64,000 bases of DNA, from assembly GCA_013288705.1 (NCBI GenBank), contig JABDBI010000002.1:880-64879 (forward strand), in the 5' to 3' direction. The notes below the pieces were generated by a model. It did no database searches. It was not told where the DNA came from and was given only the letters and a program-made list of their open reading frames with translations. This stretch comes from Methanobacteriota archaeon. Its GTDB lineage: Bacteria > Myxococcota > UBA727 > JABDBI01. Position numbers and translations under genes: made by a program. This document shows, piece after piece, positions 26,857 through 55,208 of this stretch (positions are counted from its first letter, which is position 1; every line of letters begins with the position of its first letter).

Positions 26857-26868
26857 CGAGTGTCAAAA

Positions 26869-28689
26869 ATGGGAAAAATACAACGGCTCGATGAGATCGT
26901 CGCCAATCAAATTGCGGCTGGTGAAGTGGTGGAACGTCCACAGTCGGTGGCCAAAGAGCTAATTGAAAACGCGCTTGACGCGGGCGCCATGCAGATTGAT
27001 ATCTTAGCCGATATGGGCGGTGTGAGCAGGTTGGTCGTGACCGACGATGGCCATGGCATGGAGCCGGAAGATGCGGTGCTGTGTTTTTCTCGGTATGCGA
27101 CGAGCAAGCTGAGAAGCGCTGCAGATTTGGAACGCATTGCGACATTTGGTTTTCGGGGCGAAGCGCTGCCTTCGATTGCGGCAGTGTCTAAAGTGCGCTT
27201 GCTGTCGCGCACAGAGCACAAACTTGCGGCAACTGAAGTCTGCATGGTGGGTGGCAAAGTGACCCACGTTGGCGAGACTGGGGCCACAGTTGGCACGCGC
27301 ATCGAAGTCGAAGATCTGTTTTTTAATGTTCCAGCGCGACGCAAATTTTTGAAATCGGAGCGCTCCGAGTGTGCGGCGATCGAACATGTGGTGCGTACTG
27401 CGGCGCTATCACAACCAAGTGTTGGGTTTTCATTGCGCATGGATGGGAAGCAAATTCTCGACGTGCGCCAGGCGCCTGAGGGCGCGGCGCTGGATCATCC
27501 TCGACGATTGGAGCGTGCCATTGCTTGCCTTGGCGAGGAAGTACGGGGTTTTATTTATCCGTTTTCAGCGAGCACGGGGCTGCTTTCGGTGGAAGGCTAT
27601 TTGGTTGCACCGCTGGTGACGCGTCGGGATCATCGAGGCATTCGTCTGTCGATTAACCGGCGCCCGGTGGAGGACAAGCAACTGGTGCAAGCGGTGAAAG
27701 TTGCTTATCGCACATTGCTCGAGGTGGGGCGCTTTCCAATTTGTGCGCTGAATGTGACACTTAACCCGGAGCTTGTGGATGTGAATGTGCATCCGCAAAA
27801 GCTAGAGGTGCGATTCTCAGACCCATCGCAAGTGCAGGGGAATTTGATCCGGTTACTGAGCCAGTTTTTGGCAACGACGCCATGGCTAAAAGGCCAGCAG
27901 ATGTTCTCTTCCAATGCGGAGAGGCGAGAATCCCCAGTGGCCTTCGCCCTACGCCTCAACGATATTGATGCCGGTCTCCCTCTCCCGCAAGGCGGGAGAG
28001 GGATTAAGGGTGAGGGTGACTATTCTGCACGCACAATGATCCACCCTCACCCTACCCTCTCCCGCCCAGCGGGAGAGGGAATTTCGAGCATGATCGGTGG
28101 AGCGGCTCGCTACAGTGACCTGCGTGTTCTCGGCCAAGTTAACAGCACCTACCTCGTCCTCGAATCCGCAGGCGCCATGGTCGTCGTCGATCAACACGCC
28201 GCCCACGAACGCGTGATGTTCGAAAAATTCCGCAACCAAATTCGCTCCGCCAATCTCGTCGGCCAACCCCTGCTTTTCCCCATCACCATCAACCTCTCCT
28301 CCGACCAAATGGCCGCATTGCGAGACCACAAAGCAACGTTACTGCGCTATGGCCTCGAGGTAGAACCCTTCGGCGATTCCGTCGCACTGATGAAAGCCGC
28401 CCCCAATGAGCTGCCCAAGGAATCTTTAGAACAAGTCCTCAAAGACACACTCTCCGAGCTTCTCATATCGGGTCGCCCCGACGCGCTCGATGAACTCACC
28501 GACCAAGTCTGCGCAAGCATGGCCTGCCACGGATCCGTACGGGCGGGGCAACGCTTACAAGCTGCAGAGATCGATGCGTTGTTGCGTCAACTTGATTGCA
28601 TCGACTACGGCGCACATTGCCCACATGGAAGACCTGTAGTGCGCGCAATTTCATTTACCGAGATGGCAAAATGGTTCAGCCGATTGTAG
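26869..28689 (+). CDS. mutL: DNA mismatch repair protein MutL
   Basis: IAAGEVVERPQSVAKELIENALDAG and FGFRGEAL (GHKL ATPase). C-terminal dimerisation domain QHAAHERV. GTG 26860 is an alternative start. Confidence 0.95.
   Translation: MGKIQRLDEIVANQIAAGEVVERPQSVAKELIENALDAGAMQIDILADMGGVSRLVVTDDGHGMEPEDAVLCFSRYATSKLRSAADLERIATFGFRGEALPSIAAVSKVRLLSRTEHKLAATEVCMVGGKVTHVGETGATVGTRIEVEDLFFNVPARRKFLKSERSECAAIEHVVRTAALSQPSVGFSLRMDGKQILDVRQAPEGAALDHPRRLERAIACLGEEVRGFIYPFSASTGLLSVEGYLVAPLVTRRDHRGIRLSINRRPVEDKQLVQAVKVAYRTLLEVGRFPICALNVTLNPELVDVNVHPQKLEVRFSDPSQVQGNLIRLLSQFLATTPWLKGQQMFSSNAERRESPVAFALRLNDIDAGLPLPQGGRGIKGEGDYSARTMIHPHPTLSRPAGEGISSMIGGAARYSDLRVLGQVNSTYLVLESAGAMVVVDQHAAHERVMFEKFRNQIRSANLVGQPLLFPITINLSSDQMAALRDHKATLLRYGLEVEPFGDSVALMKAAPNELPKESLEQVLKDTLSELLISGRPDALDELTDQVCASMACHGSVRAGQRLQAAEIDALLRQLDCIDYGAHCPHGRPVVRAISFTEMAKWFSRL
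27977..28080. repeat. ~104-bp nested palindromic repeat element lying in frame in the mutL linker
   Basis: Three stems. tccctctcccgc/aag/gcgggagaggga (27977-28003). agggtgagggtg (28007-28018) with caccctcaccct (28042-28053). ccctctcccgc/cca/gcgggagaggg (28055-28079). Confidence 0.85.
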
Positions 28690-33598: not shown

Positions 33599-34344
33599 CG
33601 AGATTGGCGACGAAGACCGCCTTGGTGACTGGCGCAAGCAGGGGTATAGGGCGAGCGATCGCGATCGCGTTTGCCGAGCAGGGCGCGCGCGTCGTGGTGA
33701 ACTACGCGCGTCGCGTTGAAGAGGCACAGCAGACGGCTCGTCAAATTCTCGACGTGGGCGGCGCAGCACCTGTCCTTAAACAATTCGATGTCGGCGATGC
33801 AAAAGCCGTCGAAGATGCATTCGCGCAGATTAGCAAAGAGATTGGCGGAATCGATATACTGGTGAACAATGCCGGTATCTCGATCGACGGTTTGCTCGCG
33901 CGAGCCAAAGTGGAAGACTGGCAAGCAGTGATGCGCACCAACCTCGATGGAGCTTTTTTTTGCGCAAAAGCTTGCGTGAGACACATGATGAAGAGTCGGT
34001 GGGGACGTATCGTGAACGTTTCCAGTGTCGTCGGTGAGATGGGCAATGCCGGACAGGTTGCTTACTGCTCCGCAAAAGCTGGTCTAATTGGCATGACGAA
34101 AGCGTTGGCACGCGAGCTCGGGTCGCGCAATATTACGGTAAATGCCGTGACACCTGGCTTTATTGAGACCGATATGACATCTTCTTTTGACAACGCAACG
34201 CGAGAACAACTCTTGCAGAATATTCCGCTTGGCTGCGTGGGAACAGTCGATGACGTTGCTAAAGCAGTGACGTACTTGGCAACAGATGACGCACGGTATA
34301 TAACAGGCCACGTTTTGGCTATTAACGGCGGCATGTACATTTGA
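33595..34344 (+). CDS. fabG: 3-oxoacyl-ACP reductase FabG
   Basis: [32 protein letters not shown]. Confidence 0.9.
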
Positions 34345-47084: not shown

Positions 47085-47531
47085 CTAATCGAGCAATCGA
47101 TGTTTGTCTTCTGGGGTTGGAAGTCTGCAAGCATCGCGTTTGCCAAACCAATTGTACCGATGATGGGCGATCCAGTTATAGACTCCATCCCGAATGATTC
47201 GGGGAACCACTCGCCCAAGATACCCAAACCAGCGATAAGGCCCGCCCATGTGCACGAGCACACTCAGCACCGCGTCAGACCGAATATGCTGCCCATGCTC
47301 ATCGAGATAAACCAGCGTCTCTAGGTTCTCCCTCTCCCGCTGGTCGGGAGAGGGACCAAGGGTGAGGGTGGTTGTATCTGCAAGCCACATCTTTGCATTC
47401 TTCCCCTGCAGCGGCGCAAAATAGAAGCTATTGCTGTGATCCCGCGTAAACACAAAGTCGATAAACGTGTTGCATAAAATGCAAACACCATCAAAAAAGA
47501 TAATTGGACGCTCAAGTTTCATATCCGCCAT
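47085..47531 (-). CDS. thiol-disulfide oxidoreductase DCC family (DUF393) protein
   Basis: FFDGVCILCN...YNWIAHHRYNWFGKRDACRLP. Confidence 0.8.
   Translation of the reverse strand: MADMKLERPIIFFDGVCILCNTFIDFVFTRDHSNSFYFAPLQGKNAKMWLADTTTLTLGPSPDQRERENLETLVYLDEHGQHIRSDAVLSVLVHMGGPYRWFGYLGRVVPRIIRDGVYNWIAHHRYNWFGKRDACRLPTPEDKHRLLD
47329..47370. repeat. half copy (42 bp) of the mutL palindromic element, in frame inside the DCC-family gene
   Basis: tccctctcccg-ctggt-cgggagaggga followed by aagggtgagggtg. It encodes TTLTLGPSPDQRER on the minus strand. Confidence 0.8.
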
Positions 47532-49716: not shown

Positions 49717-49808
49717 ACGCGAAGTTTAATGCACAGTGAAGCGTTGTGCTTTGCAGCAATATTATAATATGATTTGCTTATCGCCATTTTTGTTTTTCTG
49801 GGGGGGAT

Positions 49809-52800
49809 ATGGCAAAGAGAGTTGGGCCGCCGCATGAGTTGAGAGCTCCGCATGAAGTGCCGAAACAGCCAATGGCAGAGAAGCATGAACCAGCGCCCCT
49901 CACGCGATCTGTGTCGGCACCCAGGCGTGAGGAAGCAACTGGCGTCGCTCAGCGGCAAGCAGATGTACATCAGCGTCTGGCTGCTACGGCAGCACCAAGA
50001 GTAGCGGAGCCGGAAGTTCCTCTTCCAGGCAAACATGCACCCGAGCCAACGGCAGTTGCACCAAAAACAGCGGATCAAATTCGCAACGAGCATCGACAGC
50101 AACTCGACCAACTGATCAAAGCAACGCAGGCAGTGAGCCACGATCCCCCCTTTGGGCCGACTCACATGGAGGCTGCCGTGCCGAAATCAGCGGAACTTGG
50201 ATGGGGTGGCGCACTTCTCAAATGGGTTGGTGACGCCGCAGGTGCTGTCCGAGAGCATGGACCAGTGGGTGCGCTCGTCGGGGAGGCGCCAAAAGACGCA
50301 AAGAAACGAGAAGCACTACAGCAGGCTCAGCAGCGAGAGAGTTTAAGAGAGGATCTCGTTCGCCTGAACGCATCTGCAATGCGGCTTCGAGAAGAACCCC
50401 TGACCTTCCCCCCTGAGGATTTTAGTAGATCACTAGATTTGGCTCGCGCGGAATTCGTGAAAGTGAGAGGGAAAAGAGCTCATATTGAGAGCGATATTAG
50501 AGATTTGCCTCGTCAGGAAATCTTGGGTGTGAAAGGGCGAAGAATTCGTATTGCCCGCTATATTGAGGAATTGGCAGCCGCAAGGAATAGATTGGTTAGA
50601 GAAATAACCGCTATCGATAACGAAAAGAAGGCCTTTCTCCTGAAACGCATCGATGATGAAATGCAGCGTGCCACGAAGGAGATGGAAGCGCTAAATCGCT
50701 ACATCAAGTACTTTGAAAGCACCTTCATGCCTCCAGAAAAAGTTGCGGCTCCTGCGCATGTTTCTGCAGTGGTAGCAGCTGCCACTCCGCCGGCGAAGAA
50801 AGCTGAGCCGATGCTCAGGCCTTGGGTCATAGGTGTTAGAGATCAAATTGCTAAAGAGACTGACATCGGAAAACGGGCGACGAGCGCAGCGACTATTCTG
50901 CTGGAACAGGTTCAGCGACGTTCAATGATACGAGGACAAGAGGCCGCTCTTGTGGCAGATGTATTGACAGCTGTGGAGCATGCAAGCCCAGTCGACACGT
51001 CGGATGCGGCTCGCGACAAGATTCGTGGTACCGATCCACTGGAACAGGTCGCAAATTCAACCAACCAAATTGCGCAAGCGGCAGCAAAGAGAGTTCTCAA
51101 AGAAAGTGCGGCAATTAGAGAGGGCTTGGTACAAGCAGAACAAGAGTTTGAAAGGCAAACCACCCGACTGAAAGCCATAGAAGTGCAACAGGAGGTTGTA
51201 AAAAAGCGAATCAAAGAGTTGAGTGCAGCGCTCAAGAACGAAGCTGTTCTAAAAGCTGTTGAGCAGCGACAACATGATGTCAATGCGCTGAGCCAGTTTT
51301 ATCGGAATGGCAACATCGGTGAAAAACTCAGGTCAGCTTTGCAAGAAATCCAAAGAAAGGAAGCAGAGCTCCAACAATTGTCAAGAGAACGACAGCGTCT
51401 GGCGCTTGTGACAAATCGCAATGGGGAAGAAGAAGCAAGATTTAAGGAGCTCGGAAATCAGGAACTTTTGATAGCGAAGTCGCTTGATGAATATCGCAAA
51501 TATCGACAAGCACTGCTTCAGTCCGGCCCATTTCCCATGCGGGACATGGACGTCTCTAATGCTTTAAGAAAAACTGTTGATTTGGCTGAGACAGCACAAA
51601 AAAGTCTTCAAGAGCAACCAGGGCAACTCTTTCATCAAGCCGCGATGGATCCGGGCGCATTTGCAAAAGATCTTCAAGGACGACTCGCGTATCAGGTTGG
51701 ACGTACGCCCGAAAGCGAACAATTGATTAAGGAACTTGGCACACGGGAGCGCGGCCTTCGAGAGTATTTTGCAAAGCTAGGCGCAGTGAAGGCTCAACTA
51801 GGCGCAGAATTAAAGGAAAAACAGGATAAGGTTGCAGCTGCAGGTGGGGTGGCATCGAAAGAGCTTGCAGCGGATATTGCAAAACTCACTGCTTTTGTGG
51901 CTTCCGTTGATCGTGAGATGGAGGCTCGCCAAAGCGAAGCAGATCTTATCGCTAGCGTCGTTCAACGCCATTCAGACGTGGGGACCGCCTTGGATTCCGC
52001 GCAGGTTGTGAACGCCGCCGGAGAGAAGGTGGCGGCGGAAGCTGCTCGAGAAGAACTTGGCATGCTTATCGCTGTCAGTGGCCATCTTTCCGCCCAACAA
52101 GCCAATGCCGTCGCGCAAAGAGAAAGCTCTGAGCGAGCGGCTAATTTTGCGCGATACCAGAGCCTTGGCAAAGGCGTCAGCGTGCTCAACAATGAAACCA
52201 GACAATTAGTTCAGCGCCAACGAACAATCAATCGGGAGATGCAGGCACGCTTTTTATTTGAAATGCGGAATGAGGCGGCGGCGACAGAAAAGAAAGGAAG
52301 AGAAGCGGAAGCTATTTTGCGAAAGCGCGTGGAAGACAGGCAGGCTGACTTTTCAGCGGTAGCTAAAAAATGTCGAGCTGAGCTTGTCGATGCGGCAGTC
52401 AAGGCCGCAGAGTCTCGACGGAAGGATTTAGACAGGCGGCTTGTGGACATTGCCAAAAGAGAAGCAGCTGCGCAGGTGAGTGCTGCAGCGCTTGGAGCTG
52501 GAGAGAAAGAGAAAGCCGCGGTTCGAGACATACAAAAGGAGAGAGAAGATCTCCAACGAGACATTCGGCAAAACGCGGTGCTAGAGGTTAGCGTCAGACT
52601 GAAGCCGGTTGAAGCCGAAATCCAAAAACTTAGAACTCAAATTGCCGGGGGAGGATTGGATGAAAAGCAACTGCAGGTGTTGCAAACACAACTGGATCGT
52701 AGAGAAATTGAGCGGCAAACAGCCATATCGCTGATGACGGAACTTGGCAGTTCCACAGCGGATGCGGTGCAGAAGCAAAGTGGTTCATGGGTACCTACCT

Positions 52801-55208
52801 TCGCGGCAACGGAAGCTCAGCGCCCATTCCAAAAAGAACTGGATGCCATCGCCAAGGAAAGAAAAGAGGCAACAGCCGCGTCAATCGCGGAATCTCAAAA
52901 GATGGCAGACGAAAATAACGCGCTGATAAAAAAACTGAGTAAAGATATCGAGGCCATTGGTGAATCCACCGATCCAAAGCAACAAGCACTGAAGCGTAAA
53001 CACGAGGCTGCAAGGCAGAGACTACGGGCGGTAACGCAAAATCTTGAAATTGCGATTGGCTGGGCACGAGAGGGACGAGAGGTAGAGGGCATTGAATGGC
53101 TTCCTGAAGAAGCAGCCTTTCGGCAAAAGACAGCAACTGCTGAACGTAACAAACTTGAGAGCGAAATCAAGGAGCTTAATAGGCTGCGGCAAGCTGGATA
53201 TGAGAAAAGAGTCGCATTGTTGCAGCAACAAAAAGATGCCGTGCAAGCTGAATTGGACAAACTCGAGAAAGCAAGATCAGCACCGTTGGGATTAACAAGA
53301 AGTGAACTTGCCATGGAAGATCCTGCTAATCGGAAGAAGCGCTTAGCAAACTTAGCGGTCGAGCTCGGCACCTGCCTTGCTCAGCAAAGCGACAACGATG
53401 CCGCCTTTCACTACATGATTAAGATCCTCCAGCGATTTGATGGGCATACCCGTGAGGCATGGAGAGACGCCGGACGCGGCGATAATCCATATCCCAATAG
53501 TTGGGCGAGCATTTTTAGCCAACAGGTGGGCAATTTTGCATCTGCATTGCAAGGCGAAAACTATCAACGGTCGACGTCGCAATATGTGATGGAAAGACAT
53601 CTTGCTAGACATGGTCTCGAGCCTGGCATCCTAGGTTTTGTGGAAGCGTATAAGAGACTTGCCGCGACTATGACTGGACGCGGTTTAGCTCTGCCAGAGC
53701 GCAGTCGACGGGATTTTAATGGATTTGTAGAGGGTCTAAGGGGCAGTTTTTCTGCAATTATGGATCACCCTGAAGAAGCACAAATGCTTGCCGCCGATCT
53801 CGGGCATGCGTATGCAATTTTACAAAATGGCGCTCTTTACTTAACCGACGCGGTACCAAAAATGTTGCAAGGCGCTCTGGCGAGAAGAACCGCGCAGGAC
53901 ATTGCAAAAGACATTTTAGAGGGGCGCCGTCGTCATATAGCGGGAGGTGAAACGCCGGAGCCGACTATTTCAGTTGAAATGTTAGCGTTGTTGCATTTAG
54001 GCAGCTTAATGCCTTACGTCGCTGGCGCGTATCGAGGTGCCACCGGGCAGGATGTTGTGGGTCGTTTGCTCGGATACTTTGCTCCCGAGGGCGTTTTGAG
54101 AAATATGGTTGGGGCGATTGGTGGTACGGTGCAAACCCATGCGGAGGTTGCCGGAGCCAATTTGATGAGTCGCGACACTGAAGTTCTCGTCAACTCCATG
54201 GTAAGAGCGTATTCGGTGGGCATCGCCAATGGAGAAGGCCCGATCGCTGGCATTAAGGCGGGTGCCAAATATGCGCTTGCGCGACAGGCTTTGCAGGACG
54301 CAGGCACCCATCTGCATGACGTCTATCGCGGGACTGGTATAAAACGTATTTTCCAGGAACTTGCGTCGTGGTGGAAGGCTGTTTCATTTAGGGAGGCAAT
54401 CAGCCGCGTTCTGACTACCTTAGCCCCGGTCGGTGCCGCTATTGGCGCGATTTTTGTCGTTGGTTTGAGCTTGACCGGTATCGGCGCTGTTGTGATAGCA
54501 GCCATCGCGGCTGCCTATGCCATCCATAAATACTGGGGCTACATTTCTCGGCGTACACGGGAGAGAGCAGATCGTATCTTCGAAAAGGTCAGGATGCAAG
54601 AAGCGCTCGATGCGCTGCCGGGTCGACTGCATGATACAGCTGGAACAAATGCCGGTATCTTGTCAGACAACATCGCCTATTTTATGGAACGGCATGCTGA
54701 CGAGATTGCAGCTGGGGCAGGTATTTCAGCGGGCAGCCTTGAGAAACAACTTAGGGCGGGTCTAAAGATAAAAATTAAGGAGAAAGTAGAACTCTTGAAG
54801 GCAAGAATGAATGACACAAGCGAGGAAGGAAAACAGTTGCGAAACCAACTGGAGACACACAGGGATCCTGAAGATAGGTTGAGAATTTTGCAAAGTGAAT
54901 TGATGAGGCTGTTGGAGGGCGATTTACGTGAGCATTTGCGCGCCGTTGCTGATGCTGCAGTGAAAGCCGGATCCGGTCGCGATCAGACAGGGCGATTGGG
55001 CCCGAGAGAAGGCCTGGAGGATGAGGTTGGCCAGGTTGAAAGGCAGATGTTCGCCCTGGATGATTCCAGCGTTAACTATGGCGACAGGCCCGAGGCTGGG
55101 GCGCGATTTAGGCGTTGGCGAGAGCGGCAGAAAAGCGAAGGCCAGCTATCAGGTCTTCCACGTGACGAAACGCCCGCTCCACCCCCCAGTCCAGCTGCCA
55201 CGGATTGA
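49809..55208 (+). CDS. giant orphan protein (1799 aa): disordered Pro/Ala N-terminus, ~1100-aa coiled-coil, globular region, bilobed hydrophobic hairpin, acidic/Pro-rich tail
   Basis: Uninterrupted 5.4-kb ORF with a G-rich RBS. E/K/R/A/Q heptad-like composition over aa ~170-1240. Hydrophobic stretch LAPVGAAIGAIFVVGLSLTGIGAVVIAAIAAAYAI (nt 54396-54536). No recognisable catalytic motif. Confidence 0.8.
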   Translation: MAKRVGPPHELRAPHEVPKQPMAEKHEPAPLTRSVSAPRREEATGVAQRQADVHQRLAATAAPRVAEPEVPLPGKHAPEPTAVAPKTADQIRNEHRQQLDQLIKATQAVSHDPPFGPTHMEAAVPKSAELGWGGALLKWVGDAAGAVREHGPVGALVGEAPKDAKKREALQQAQQRESLREDLVRLNASAMRLREEPLTFPPEDFSRSLDLARAEFVKVRGKRAHIESDIRDLPRQEILGVKGRRIRIARYIEELAAARNRLVREITAIDNEKKAFLLKRIDDEMQRATKEMEALNRYIKYFESTFMPPEKVAAPAHVSAVVAAATPPAKKAEPMLRPWVIGVRDQIAKETDIGKRATSAATILLEQVQRRSMIRGQEAALVADVLTAVEHASPVDTSDAARDKIRGTDPLEQVANSTNQIAQAAAKRVLKESAAIREGLVQAEQEFERQTTRLKAIEVQQEVVKKRIKELSAALKNEAVLKAVEQRQHDVNALSQFYRNGNIGEKLRSALQEIQRKEAELQQLSRERQRLALVTNRNGEEEARFKELGNQELLIAKSLDEYRKYRQALLQSGPFPMRDMDVSNALRKTVDLAETAQKSLQEQPGQLFHQAAMDPGAFAKDLQGRLAYQVGRTPESEQLIKELGTRERGLREYFAKLGAVKAQLGAELKEKQDKVAAAGGVASKELAADIAKLTAFVASVDREMEARQSEADLIASVVQRHSDVGTALDSAQVVNAAGEKVAAEAAREELGMLIAVSGHLSAQQANAVAQRESSERAANFARYQSLGKGVSVLNNETRQLVQRQRTINREMQARFLFEMRNEAAATEKKGREAEAILRKRVEDRQADFSAVAKKCRAELVDAAVKAAESRRKDLDRRLVDIAKREAAAQVSAAALGAGEKEKAAVRDIQKEREDLQRDIRQNAVLEVSVRLKPVEAEIQKLRTQIAGGGLDEKQLQVLQTQLDRREIERQTAISLMTELGSSTADAVQKQSGSWVPTFAATEAQRPFQKELDAIAKERKEATAASIAESQKMADENNALIKKLSKDIEAIGESTDPKQQALKRKHEAARQRLRAVTQNLEIAIGWAREGREVEGIEWLPEEAAFRQKTATAERNKLESEIKELNRLRQAGYEKRVALLQQQKDAVQAELDKLEKARSAPLGLTRSELAMEDPANRKKRLANLAVELGTCLAQQSDNDAAFHYMIKILQRFDGHTREAWRDAGRGDNPYPNSWASIFSQQVGNFASALQGENYQRSTSQYVMERHLARHGLEPGILGFVEAYKRLAATMTGRGLALPERSRRDFNGFVEGLRGSFSAIMDHPEEAQMLAADLGHAYAILQNGALYLTDAVPKMLQGALARRTAQDIAKDILEGRRRHIAGGETPEPTISVEMLALLHLGSLMPYVAGAYRGATGQDVVGRLLGYFAPEGVLRNMVGAIGGTVQTHAEVAGANLMSRDTEVLVNSMVRAYSVGIANGEGPIAGIKAGAKYALARQALQDAGTHLHDVYRGTGIKRIFQELASWWKAVSFREAISRVLTTLAPVGAAIGAIFVVGLSLTGIGAVVIAAIAAAYAIHKYWGYISRRTRERADRIFEKVRMQEALDALPGRLHDTAGTNAGILSDNIAYFMERHADEIAAGAGISAGSLEKQLRAGLKIKIKEKVELLKARMNDTSEEGKQLRNQLETHRDPEDRLRILQSELMRLLEGDLREHLRAVADAAVKAGSGRDQTGRLGPREGLEDEVGQVERQMFALDDSSVNYGDRPEAGARFRRWRERQKSEGQLSGLPRDETPAPPPSPAATD

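Follow-up and report, generated by a model that had tools for sequence, protein, structure and literature searches.

The mutL gene in the 64,000-nucleotide stretch of DNA analysed here (the 64-kb window), which comes from an uncultured host whose closest MutL relatives are Myxococcota MAGs, contains in its reading frame what is very probably an inverted doublet of the pan-bacterial BoxC/PIT/TM repeat, a dispersed and probably mobile sequence that landed in the permissive linker of MutL and is tolerated there. To judge from its letters, each half of the element is the published BoxC/PIT/TMECO intrastrand-triplex repeat, with CCCTCTCCC, a loop, GGGAGAGGG, a spacer and AGGGTGAGGG in that order. 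The BoxC/PIT/TMECO repeat reportedly goes back to Bachellier et al. in the 1990s, and its triplex motif is said to have been treated by Hoyne, Maher et al. in 2000. This repeat, also known as a G4-hairpin switch, has been studied since the 1990s and has no agreed function or mode of spread. The features of the doublet, and of a third half-unit elsewhere in the window, are given in Table 1.

Table 1. Features of the repeat and its two host genes (positions in the 64-kb window)
Feature	Position	Strand	Description
mutL ORF	26860..28689	+	609 aa in ORF listing; 606 aa in public gene call
In-frame read-through	27976..28080	+	35 codons, MutL residues 373-407, LPLPQGGRGIKGEGDYSARTMIHPHPTLSRPAGEG
Half-unit A	27977..28018	+	TM/BoxC unit: hairpin TCCCTCTCCCGC-aag-GCGGGAGAGGGA, spacer tta, third purine block AGGGTGAGGGTG
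Central spacer	28019..28041	.	23 nt, ACTATTCTGCACGCACAATGATC, separates the two inverted half-units
Half-unit B	28042..28080	-	TM/BoxC unit: CACCCTCACCCT, 1-nt spacer, hairpin CCCTCTCCCGC-cca-GCGGGAGAGGG(A); nhmmer E = 3.5e-10 on minus strand
Stem 1	27977-27988 / 27992-28003		12 bp, 100% complementary, loop 3 nt
Stem 2	28007-28018 / 28042-28053		AGGGTGAGGGTG / CACCCTCACCCT, 12 bp, 100% complementary, arms 23 nt apart
Stem 3	28055-28065 / 28069-28079		11 bp, 100% complementary, loop 3 nt
Direct repeats	27978..28003 (copy 1), 28055-28080 (copy 2)	+	88% identical, starts 77 nt apart
DCC1-like thiol-disulfide oxidoreductase gene	47085..47531	-	Pfam PF04134, E = 1.8e-21; third half-unit in a loop
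Third half-unit (singleton)	47329..47370	+	TCCCTCTCCCGctggtCGGGAGAGGGAccaAGGGTGAGGGTG; minus-strand reading TLTLGPSPDQRERE; nhmmer E = 7e-13

A first-pass annotation of this DNA had described about 104 bp with three stems inside mutL, and all three are present within 27977-28080. With 92% complementarity between its outer 26-nt arms, the whole 104-bp unit is nearly self-complementary, as had also been claimed. Folding, which had been proposed as a check, places the structure beyond chance both as RNA (-86.9 kcal/mol versus -42.9 +/- 4.0 for shuffled sequences, z = -11.0, with 0 of 200 shuffles folding as well) and as DNA (z = -10.5); the predicted fold is an almost continuous stem of ~37 bp, and these ViennaRNA calculations describe secondary structure only. 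The doublet thus folds into one long hairpin in the manner of REPs and REPINs, and its two 39-42 nt half-units, inverted at the ends, constitute terminal inverted repeats like those of MITEs. Neither locus has an evident target-site duplication, and the mutL flanks (...GCCGGTC and ATTTCGAG...) have no common repeat. We note that the singleton at 47329-47370 has GGTT on either side, possibly by chance, and that perfect stems are also the outcome expected from selection for structure.

All three half-units in the window show the block order CCCTCTCCC, loop (3-6 nt), GGGAGAGGG, short spacer and (A/G)GGGTGAGGG, and half-unit A matches type A, CCCTCTCCC..GGGAGAGGGTTAGGGTGAGGG, in the TMECO table of Holder et al. 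(2015, PMC4666352), who dealt with TMECO as an intrastrand triplex motif; Kaplan et al. (2016, PMC5100583) treated the same motif as the HPG1/HPG2 G-quadruplex-hairpin. A TM unit is defined by a third block that mirrors the purine arm and by G.G-C, A.A-T and T.A-T triads (PMC4666352). The third block of half-unit A, as read from the sequence, mirrors its purine arm at 11 of 12 positions, and when 3'-GTGGGAGTGGGA-5' is set against 5'-GCGGGAGAGGGA-3' all but one of the 12 triads are allowed ones (11), consistent with a class II purine-motif triplex. The likeness to BoxC/PIT/TM thus extends to the blocks themselves (CCCTCTCCC, GGGAGAGGG and (A/G)GGGTGAGGG), their order, similar spacers and the purine mirror symmetry. 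The family as a whole is multi-copy and found in many phyla, and no linked transposase is known for it (PMC4666352).

TM units also occur in E. coli as inverted pairs on opposite strands (PMC4666352; PMC5100583), and these palindromic pairs, separated by a short spacer, have the same plan as positions 27977-28080 of the window. The E. coli hrpB-mrcB pair (164547-164631), which we read directly, consists of a hairpin, a G block, a spacer of ~16 nt, a C block and a second hairpin. The differences are that the stems here are 11-12 bp long, being lengthened by terminal GC/CG, that the spacers are 1 and 3 nt rather than the 2 of E. coli TM units, and that BoxC in E. coli is intergenic (23 of 23 copies, "none within" ORFs; PMC4666352, PMC5100583) whereas both loci here lie inside Pfam-supported genes. 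Intergenic location, however, describes the E. coli copies and is not a structural definition of the family. A blastn search of 5,426 E. coli genomes with the element gave no match, for which the short query and the low-complexity filter are the likely cause.

The host protein is an endonuclease-type MutL in which the DQHAAHERVMFE and CPHGRP motifs are intact, the invariant columns of the orthologue alignment are retained, and Pfam recognizes HATPase_c_3, DNA_mis_repair (residues 222-337) and MutL_C (424-566); its gene overlaps the downstream IPPT (miaA) gene. The translation of the element given in the first-pass annotation is correct, and the element does lie between the two domains, after residue 337 and before residue 424. 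The doublet is open in only two of the six frames, and frame +0 is among them. AlphaFold2 gives pLDDT < 50 and no secondary structure for residues 346-411, a stretch that includes the whole element, and when MutL orthologues are aligned 27 of 28 have no such peptide; together with the Pfam boundaries, these results agree with the earlier description of the site as an insertion-tolerant linker. Without the element peptide MutL would be 574-575 aa long, and its nearest relatives are 562-600 aa. MutL linkers are proline-rich, and E. coli MutL from which 40 linker residues were removed is not a mutator (PMC6902014). Even the nearest orthologue shares only 58% identity, and every aligned orthologue has a hypervariable linker, so we infer the insertion into mutL and do not see it directly.

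The preferred reading would run as follows. A copy of 102 or 105 bp (34-35 codons) would have been inserted into mutL; in the mutL frame it would have been read without a stop as a Pro/Gly/Ser/Glu/Arg-rich, disorder-compatible peptide; it would survive there because an unstructured linker tolerates changes in length; and the host gene would stay functional. A protein search with this MutL returned an identical protein, P0001, and 8000 homologues. When 120 MutL homologues were scanned for the peptide signature, ten were flagged, of which only P0001 and P0010 have genuine TM peptides. The other eight were rejected as carriers, what they have being a common conserved SPSLPTLA..PGRG stretch that is not repeat-like. 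An HMMER search with the 35-aa peptide against 1.84 billion representatives gave 0 matches at E <= 0.001, and a word-indexed protein search with a 41-aa query gave no candidate; short low-complexity queries with a variable centre are ill-suited to such searches.

The related half-unit that had been reported at 47329 in another gene is real. The DCC1-like alignment contains a clean 11-residue insertion exactly at this half-unit, missing in 23 of 24 orthologues, and the 42-nt unit of mutL recurs there identical, on the other strand of an unrelated gene; a half-unit is open in five of the six frames. Within the window the hairpin pattern occurs three times versus 0.00 expected, and AGGGTGAGGGTG with at most one mismatch occurs four times (three exact) versus 0.16 expected. 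The three units, at two loci, are all inside genes and translated, and a half-unit profile scan of the 64-kb window found no degraded copies. Outside the window the exact 26-mer is found, in two collections that do not include the source contig, in 14 stretches of species-representative genomes from many phyla and in 34 metagenome stretches, and the bare hairpin pattern is found in at least 120 viral-contig stretches. The loci that were fetched contain 26 inverted pairs among 217 units, with spacers of 11-102 nt, and in-frame units are present in genes of other phyla, namely thrS, AAA_28, LutB, an Eco57I-type methylase, a DUF1156 protein and a TPR protein (two units). The description of the element as dispersed therefore holds, given the insertion in the unrelated DCC1-like gene and the unit's presence in many other genomes. 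Neither of the two outcomes named beforehand as refuting the claim, the same linker sequence in relatives without the repeat family or no further genomic copies beyond chance, was observed.

A family described as strictly intergenic in E. coli is thus translated here in an intact mismatch-repair gene and in a second gene, and its in-frame units in mutL, thrS, lutB, the methylase gene and others put it beside RPEs and intragenic REPs as selfish DNA able to live in proteins. The question posed by a near-identical ~40-nt sequence in so many phyla becomes sharper as a result. The Rickettsia RPEs (Ogata et al. 2000; reviewed in PMC10969869), to which the element had been compared at the outset, are similar in that they are palindromic selfish repeats of ~100-150 bp that lie in frame in housekeeping genes, are translated, and do no evident harm because they are tolerated where they fall on the protein surface or in loops. 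They differ in being an unrelated sequence family, confined to Rickettsia and inserted very frequently in one genome. Because the unit is fully accounted for by the long-known BoxC/PIT/TM repeat, the comparison stands as an analogy of behaviour, and RPEs are not the closest relative.

Intragenic REPs of the GTAG and CGTC superfamilies (Di Nocera, De Gregorio, Rocco 2013, PMC3733652) resemble the element in being short, GC-rich and palindromic and in occurring as singles and inverted dimers. They lie in frame in known genes, to which they add 20-30 amino acids; many of their hosts are DNA synthesis/repair genes and tRNA synthetases (mutL is not among the genes named in the main text), and in modular or loop regions their presence is considered neutral (PMC3733652). 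The units here begin TCCCTCTCCC and end GGGTGAGGGTG, and they differ from REPs in having a third block (predicted to form triplex or G4) and in having neither the GTAG nor the CGTC tag, the conserved tetranucleotide that marks one end of a REP palindrome (PMC3733652). Membership of the REP/RAYT system was rejected because the tag is absent; an association with RAYTs is itself known for GTAG REPs only. REPINs (Bertels and Rainey 2011, PMC3116915) and bacterial MITEs share with the element the plan of two inverted units with a short spacer that form one long hairpin, a plan in which singletons are likely remnants, and a low-GC metagenomic family in which TM units are terminal inverted repeats around a conserved core of ~89 nt is similar to both. 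REPINs are extragenic, whereas the element is intragenic with no target-site duplication seen, and no parent IS with matching terminal inverted repeats is reported for the family (PMC4666352). Most likely the element is selfish DNA of the REP/REPIN or MITE type that is non-autonomous and depends for its movement on a putative enzyme acting in trans. Its predicted hairpin, triplex or G-quadruplex potential likely makes it a place where replication slips locally, which we take to be a side effect rather than a selected function.

A broader reading, which we consider unlikely, is that TM/BoxC is an active cross-phylum mobile repeat, unusually compatible with translation in that its half-unit is open in most frames and encodes a disorder-prone peptide, that repeatedly seeds or lengthens disordered protein segments, and that in mutL it raises the rate of inactivating deletions and so gives lineages with the element a heritable tendency to mutator variants. 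If segments are seeded in this way, MutL linkers in the clade would be partly TM-built (35 of ~73 linker residues in this MutL, and the greater part of the linker of P0010).

The palindrome could instead be a selected structure in the mutL-miaA transcript or DNA that tunes expression of MutL or of the downstream miaA, for example as an RNase III/processing site, a ribosome-pausing hairpin or a G-quadruplex/hairpin switch. Its perfect stems, its very stable ~37-bp fold and the overlap of mutL with miaA fit such a role, as does the sense-strand tract G3-N3-G3-N5-G3-N3-G3 read at 27994-28016, since the motif has been proposed to be a G4-hairpin-duplex switch in E. coli (PMC5100583). The unit, however, lies in unrelated genes and intergenic DNA across phyla and so is not specific to mutL, other MutL orthologues have no element, and PIT elements are reported to have neither promoter nor terminator activity in E. 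coli (PMC4666352). Scans around the element found no promoter- or terminator-like site at it, and Rfam gave no family at the gathering threshold. We therefore regard such a selected role as distinctly unlikely. Sub-threshold Rfam matches to miRNA-precursor hairpins were discarded as generic and meaningless.

The element could also be a mutator contingency locus, in line with the suggestion of the first-pass annotation that deletions or slippage might toggle mutator phenotypes: slippage induced by its structure would delete or rearrange the element, and the mutation rate would rise as MutL is switched off. The two 26-nt direct repeats, 77 nt apart, would allow this: in simulation, the 77-nt deletion between them shifts the MutL frame and brings a stop at residue 394, before the C-terminal endonuclease/dimerisation domain, and TM loci in E. 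coli are deletion-prone, with an excess of small deletions (PMC4666352). Such a deletion is irreversible, however, and so not a toggle; the databases hold a single version of the sequence (P0001 clusters with no other protein, and the Logan contig agrees at 100% identity); and TM units in only 2 of the 120 MutL homologues give no sign of selection for the element in mutL. A contingency locus is thus very unlikely, and what the element in mutL does offer is a testable, putative link between a structure-prone repeat and loss of repair.

That an assembler spliced a repeat into mutL is hardly credible. The contig was assembled from a metagenome, and chimeric joins can arise at repeats, but the reading frame is kept with both MutL domains intact, two separate in-frame cases in one contig are improbable as errors, and a second assembly, Logan contig SRR8432536_140, which possibly derives from the same reads, is 100% identical across both loci over spans of 4.4 kb and 20.4 kb. 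The chance that the sequence is a native Pro/Gly-rich low-complexity linker, palindromic by accident or codon bias, is negligible: MutL linkers are indeed proline-rich and hypervariable (PMC6902014), but this reading is effectively refuted by the hairpin count, the shuffles, the 27 of 28 orthologues without the peptide, the copies in other phyla and in E. coli intergenic DNA, and the insertion in the unrelated DCC1-like gene. For annotation, peptides of the PSP...GRG.KGEG, TLTL.PSP or GEG.RVRV type inside proteins can be read as repeat-derived.

The element at window positions 27977–28080, within the mutL ORF (26860–28689), contains the three stems that the first-pass annotation described there (see table), and with its outer 26-nt arms 92% complementary the whole is, as had been stated, nearly self-complementary and folds as one near-continuous stem. 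The folding check bears this out, with an RNA minimum free energy of −86.9 kcal/mol, far below the −42.9 ± 4.0 kcal/mol of dinucleotide shuffles (z = −11; 0 of 200 reached it), and a z-score of −10.5 when folded as DNA. Against 0.00 expected, the 64-kb window has three copies of the hairpin pattern; the related half-unit reported near 47329 is present at 47329–47370, with AGGGTGAGGGTG downstream as in mutL. A profile of the three half-units found no additional or degraded copies in the 64-kb window, and both loci are 100% identical in the Logan assembly of run SRR8432536.

A full-text search with the element's block sequences located the TMECO motif of Holder et al. 2015 (PMC4666352), whose type A is CCCTCTCCC-loop-GGGAGAGGG-TT-AGGGTGAGGG and whose type B has -CC-GGGGTGAGGG. 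The motif goes back to the 1990s as the BoxC repeat, and it is also what Hoyne, Maher and colleagues called the PIT (potential intrastrand triplex) element; according to Holder et al., it has 23 copies in E. coli K-12, all intergenic, is found in >260 genomes, forms a stable triplex in vitro as an isolated strand, has neither promoter or terminator activity nor a linked transposase, shows an excess of small deletions between strains at its loci, and forms "palindromic TM" pairs of inverted copies on opposite strands (PMC4666352). For Kaplan et al. 2016 this motif is a G-quadruplex/hairpin switch, with 0 copies inside ORFs and opposite-strand pairs <50 bp apart (PMC5100583). The E. coli hrpB-mrcB pair, whose sequence we inspected, reads CCCTCTCCCtgtGGGAGAGGGccGGGGTGAGGG, a ~16-nt spacer and CACCCTCACCCTaaCCCTCTCCCtcaaGGGAGAGGG, the same layout as in the window element. 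Judged by sequence inspection, the mirror symmetry required for a purine-motif triplex holds in the unit, where 11 of 12 triads would be allowed with the third block antiparallel to the purine arm. The block match, the hrpB-mrcB layout and this symmetry identify both halves as TM/BoxC units, separated by a 23-nt spacer, so that the 104-bp feature as a whole is a palindromic TM doublet. It belongs to a long-known repeat family, here intragenic and translated, a setting from which the E. coli literature reports the family to be absent. Among other palindromic repeats there is ample precedent for such a setting, with RPEs as the classic case within genes (PMC10969869); Di Nocera et al. 2013 (PMC3733652) described intragenic REP singles and dimers that add 20–30 residues, in many cases to DNA-repair proteins and tRNA synthetases. 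REPs carry a GTAG or CGTC tag, however, and the element has neither.

The host gene encodes a MutL of the endonuclease type, in which the element is translated in frame as residues 373–407 (LPLPQGGRGIKGEGDYSARTMIHPHPTLSRPAGEG), between Pfam DNA_mis_repair and MutL_C; the first-pass annotation had placed it between the ATPase domain and the C-terminal dimerisation domain. An AlphaFold2 model (29 aligned sequences) is confident for both flanking domains and gives residues 346–411 a pLDDT <50 and no secondary structure. Among 5.8 billion proteins the closest non-identical MutL shares 58% identity with this one (relatives with a name come from Myxococcota MAGs), and the linker is hypervariable across the 29-sequence alignment, so mutL offers no clean empty site and its insertion is what we infer. 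In the orthologue alignment 27 of the 28 other sequences do not have the element peptide; MutL minus 34–35 codons is 574–575 aa long, and its closest relatives are 562–600 aa. In-silico removal of 102 bp (27978–28079) or 105 bp leaves a continuous MutL either way. E. coli MutL missing 40 of 100 linker residues is non-mutator, and linker length influences roadblock bypass (PMC6902014).

The insertion test is cleaner at the second locus. The ORF at 47085–47531 (minus strand) encodes a DCC1-like thiol-disulfide oxidoreductase (PF04134, E = 1.8e-21), and the half-unit, translated on that strand as TLTLGPSPDQRERE, coincides with an 11-residue extra loop segment that is missing in 23 of 24 orthologues; every invariant residue is retained. 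The proposal that the element is dispersed is borne out by this independent copy, which lies in frame where an unrelated gene has an insertion, and by the same unit in other phyla.

An exact match to the 26-mer CGGGAGAGGGANNAAGGGTGAGGGTG of the unit was found in 14 stretches from species-representative genomes and in 34 metagenome stretches, counted in collections neither of which includes the source contig. The species-representative hosts range over Saccharibacteria, Parcubacteria, Ignavibacteria, Anaerolineae, Betaproteobacteria, Syntrophobacteraceae and Poribacteria, among others. The string is common to very distant phyla, CPR lineages among them (comparison loci L123–L136), and such sharing cannot be put down to neutral DNA inherited vertically. 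The bare hairpin pattern is found in at least 120 stretches of viral contigs, mostly, among the matches listed, with GGGGTGAGGG or GGGGAGAGGG on one flank. The 217 units counted in the fetched loci form 26 inverted pairs, which occur in either orientation and have spacers 11–102 nt long.

In-frame TM units are not unique to the source genome: at exact-26-mer sites, a long open frame across the unit and a Pfam-confirmed gene identified the cases in the table. The MutL of a Myxococcota MAG (P0010, GCA_040384225.1; 56% identical) has a linker made mostly of a cluster of 3–4 degenerate TM-like hairpins, at a linker position different from that of the window element; in the 21.8 kb of that genome examined, TM blocks lie solely in the mutL linker. 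The window MutL and P0010 are the only ones of 120 MutL homologues with TM-type peptides, so there is no sign of a special affinity for mutL beyond linker permissiveness. The linker of another homologue, P0016, around LRQGFGGQA resembles at the protein level a translation of another GC-rich repeat.

Coordinates of element stems, MutL domains and TM units elsewhere (L, fetched comparison loci)
Feature	Position	Detail
Stem 1 of element		12 bp perfect, 3-nt loop; TCCCTCTCCCGC aag GCGGGAGAGGGA
Central stem of element	3-nt spacer after stem 1	AGGGTGAGGGTG, perfect pairing with CACCCTCACCCT 23 nt downstream
Stem 3 of element		11 bp perfect hairpin; CCCTCTCCCGC cca GCGGGAGAGGG
DNA_mis_repair (Pfam)	MutL residues 222–337	
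MutL_C (Pfam)	MutL residues 424–566	
Threonyl-tRNA synthetase (thrS), Saccharibacteria	L127:2432-2473	unit within anticodon-binding domain
AAA_28 ATPase	L166:871-912	unit in frame
LutB	L170:3180-3221	unit between Fer4 and LutB_C
Eco57I-type methylase	L123:6223-6264	unit in frame
DUF1156 protein	L139:7090-7131	unit in frame
TPR protein	L125:6838-6879; second near residue 385, same ORF	two separate units
P0010 linker hairpins	L137:11019-11170	peptide LTPSPSPESGEGRSWALSPSPLGGEGFRVRLPS...SPSPTSGRG
Ga0187783 MITE-like family	L154:1941-2114; L164:668-836; L169:2762-2938; L172:408-580	

In a low-GC organism of metagenome Ga0187783, TM units are the terminal inverted repeats flanking a conserved AT-rich core of ~88–91 nt; this family is a MITE-like element, multi-copy in the one metagenome and accounting for 13 of the 34 metagenome 26-mer stretches. 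The doublet/singleton organisation and this relative suggest that the element may have spread as a non-autonomous mobile unit of the REPIN or MITE type; against this, it has no GTAG or CGTC tag, no target-site duplication is evident at its loci and no transposase is known for the family. A 102-bp (27978–28079) or 105-bp copy would have inserted into mutL and would persist because the linker tolerates changes of length and sequence, the frame used is stop-free (two of six frames are open through the doublet, five of six through the half-unit), and the encoded P, G, S, L, E and R are compatible with an unstructured segment. The core of the first-pass reading, a dispersed palindromic repeat in frame in a tolerant linker, is supported by the disordered linker, the DCC1-like insert and the occurrences in other phyla. 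The near-identity of units across phyla, and what moves them, are a puzzle of the whole family and not of the mutL locus.

That the element is instead a selected RNA or DNA structure is improbable: its stems are perfect and the sense strand carries a G4 tract, but the unit occurs outside mutL, no promoter-like or terminator-like site was found at the element, and an Rfam search with it gave no meaningful match. Slightly less probable still is a mutator switch, whose one concrete basis is that the two hairpins are 26-nt direct repeats 77 nt apart; deletion between them, when simulated, shifts the MutL frame and brings in a stop at residue 394, and E. coli TM loci are prone to deletion. Such a loss would however be irreversible, and protein records and the Logan assembly hold a single allele. 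An assembly artefact is very hard to reconcile with the intact ORF, intact Pfam domains and identical Logan assembly. A native low-complexity linker is ruled out, with hardly any doubt, by the three hairpins against 0.00 expected, the 0 of 200 shuffles, the 26-mer elsewhere and the DCC1-like insert.

Two other window features were seen. At 33655–33674 lies a short palindrome, tandem or overlapping (GCGATCGCGATCGC), whose core GCGATCGC matches the cyanobacterial HIP1 octamer; this is a single occurrence and may be due to chance. A called gene of 1799 aa without a Pfam hit on record occupies ~49800–55200 on the minus strand (L138:2315-7714), and coincides with a strong AT skew of +0.21 to +0.22 at 50001–54000, compared with ~0 elsewhere.
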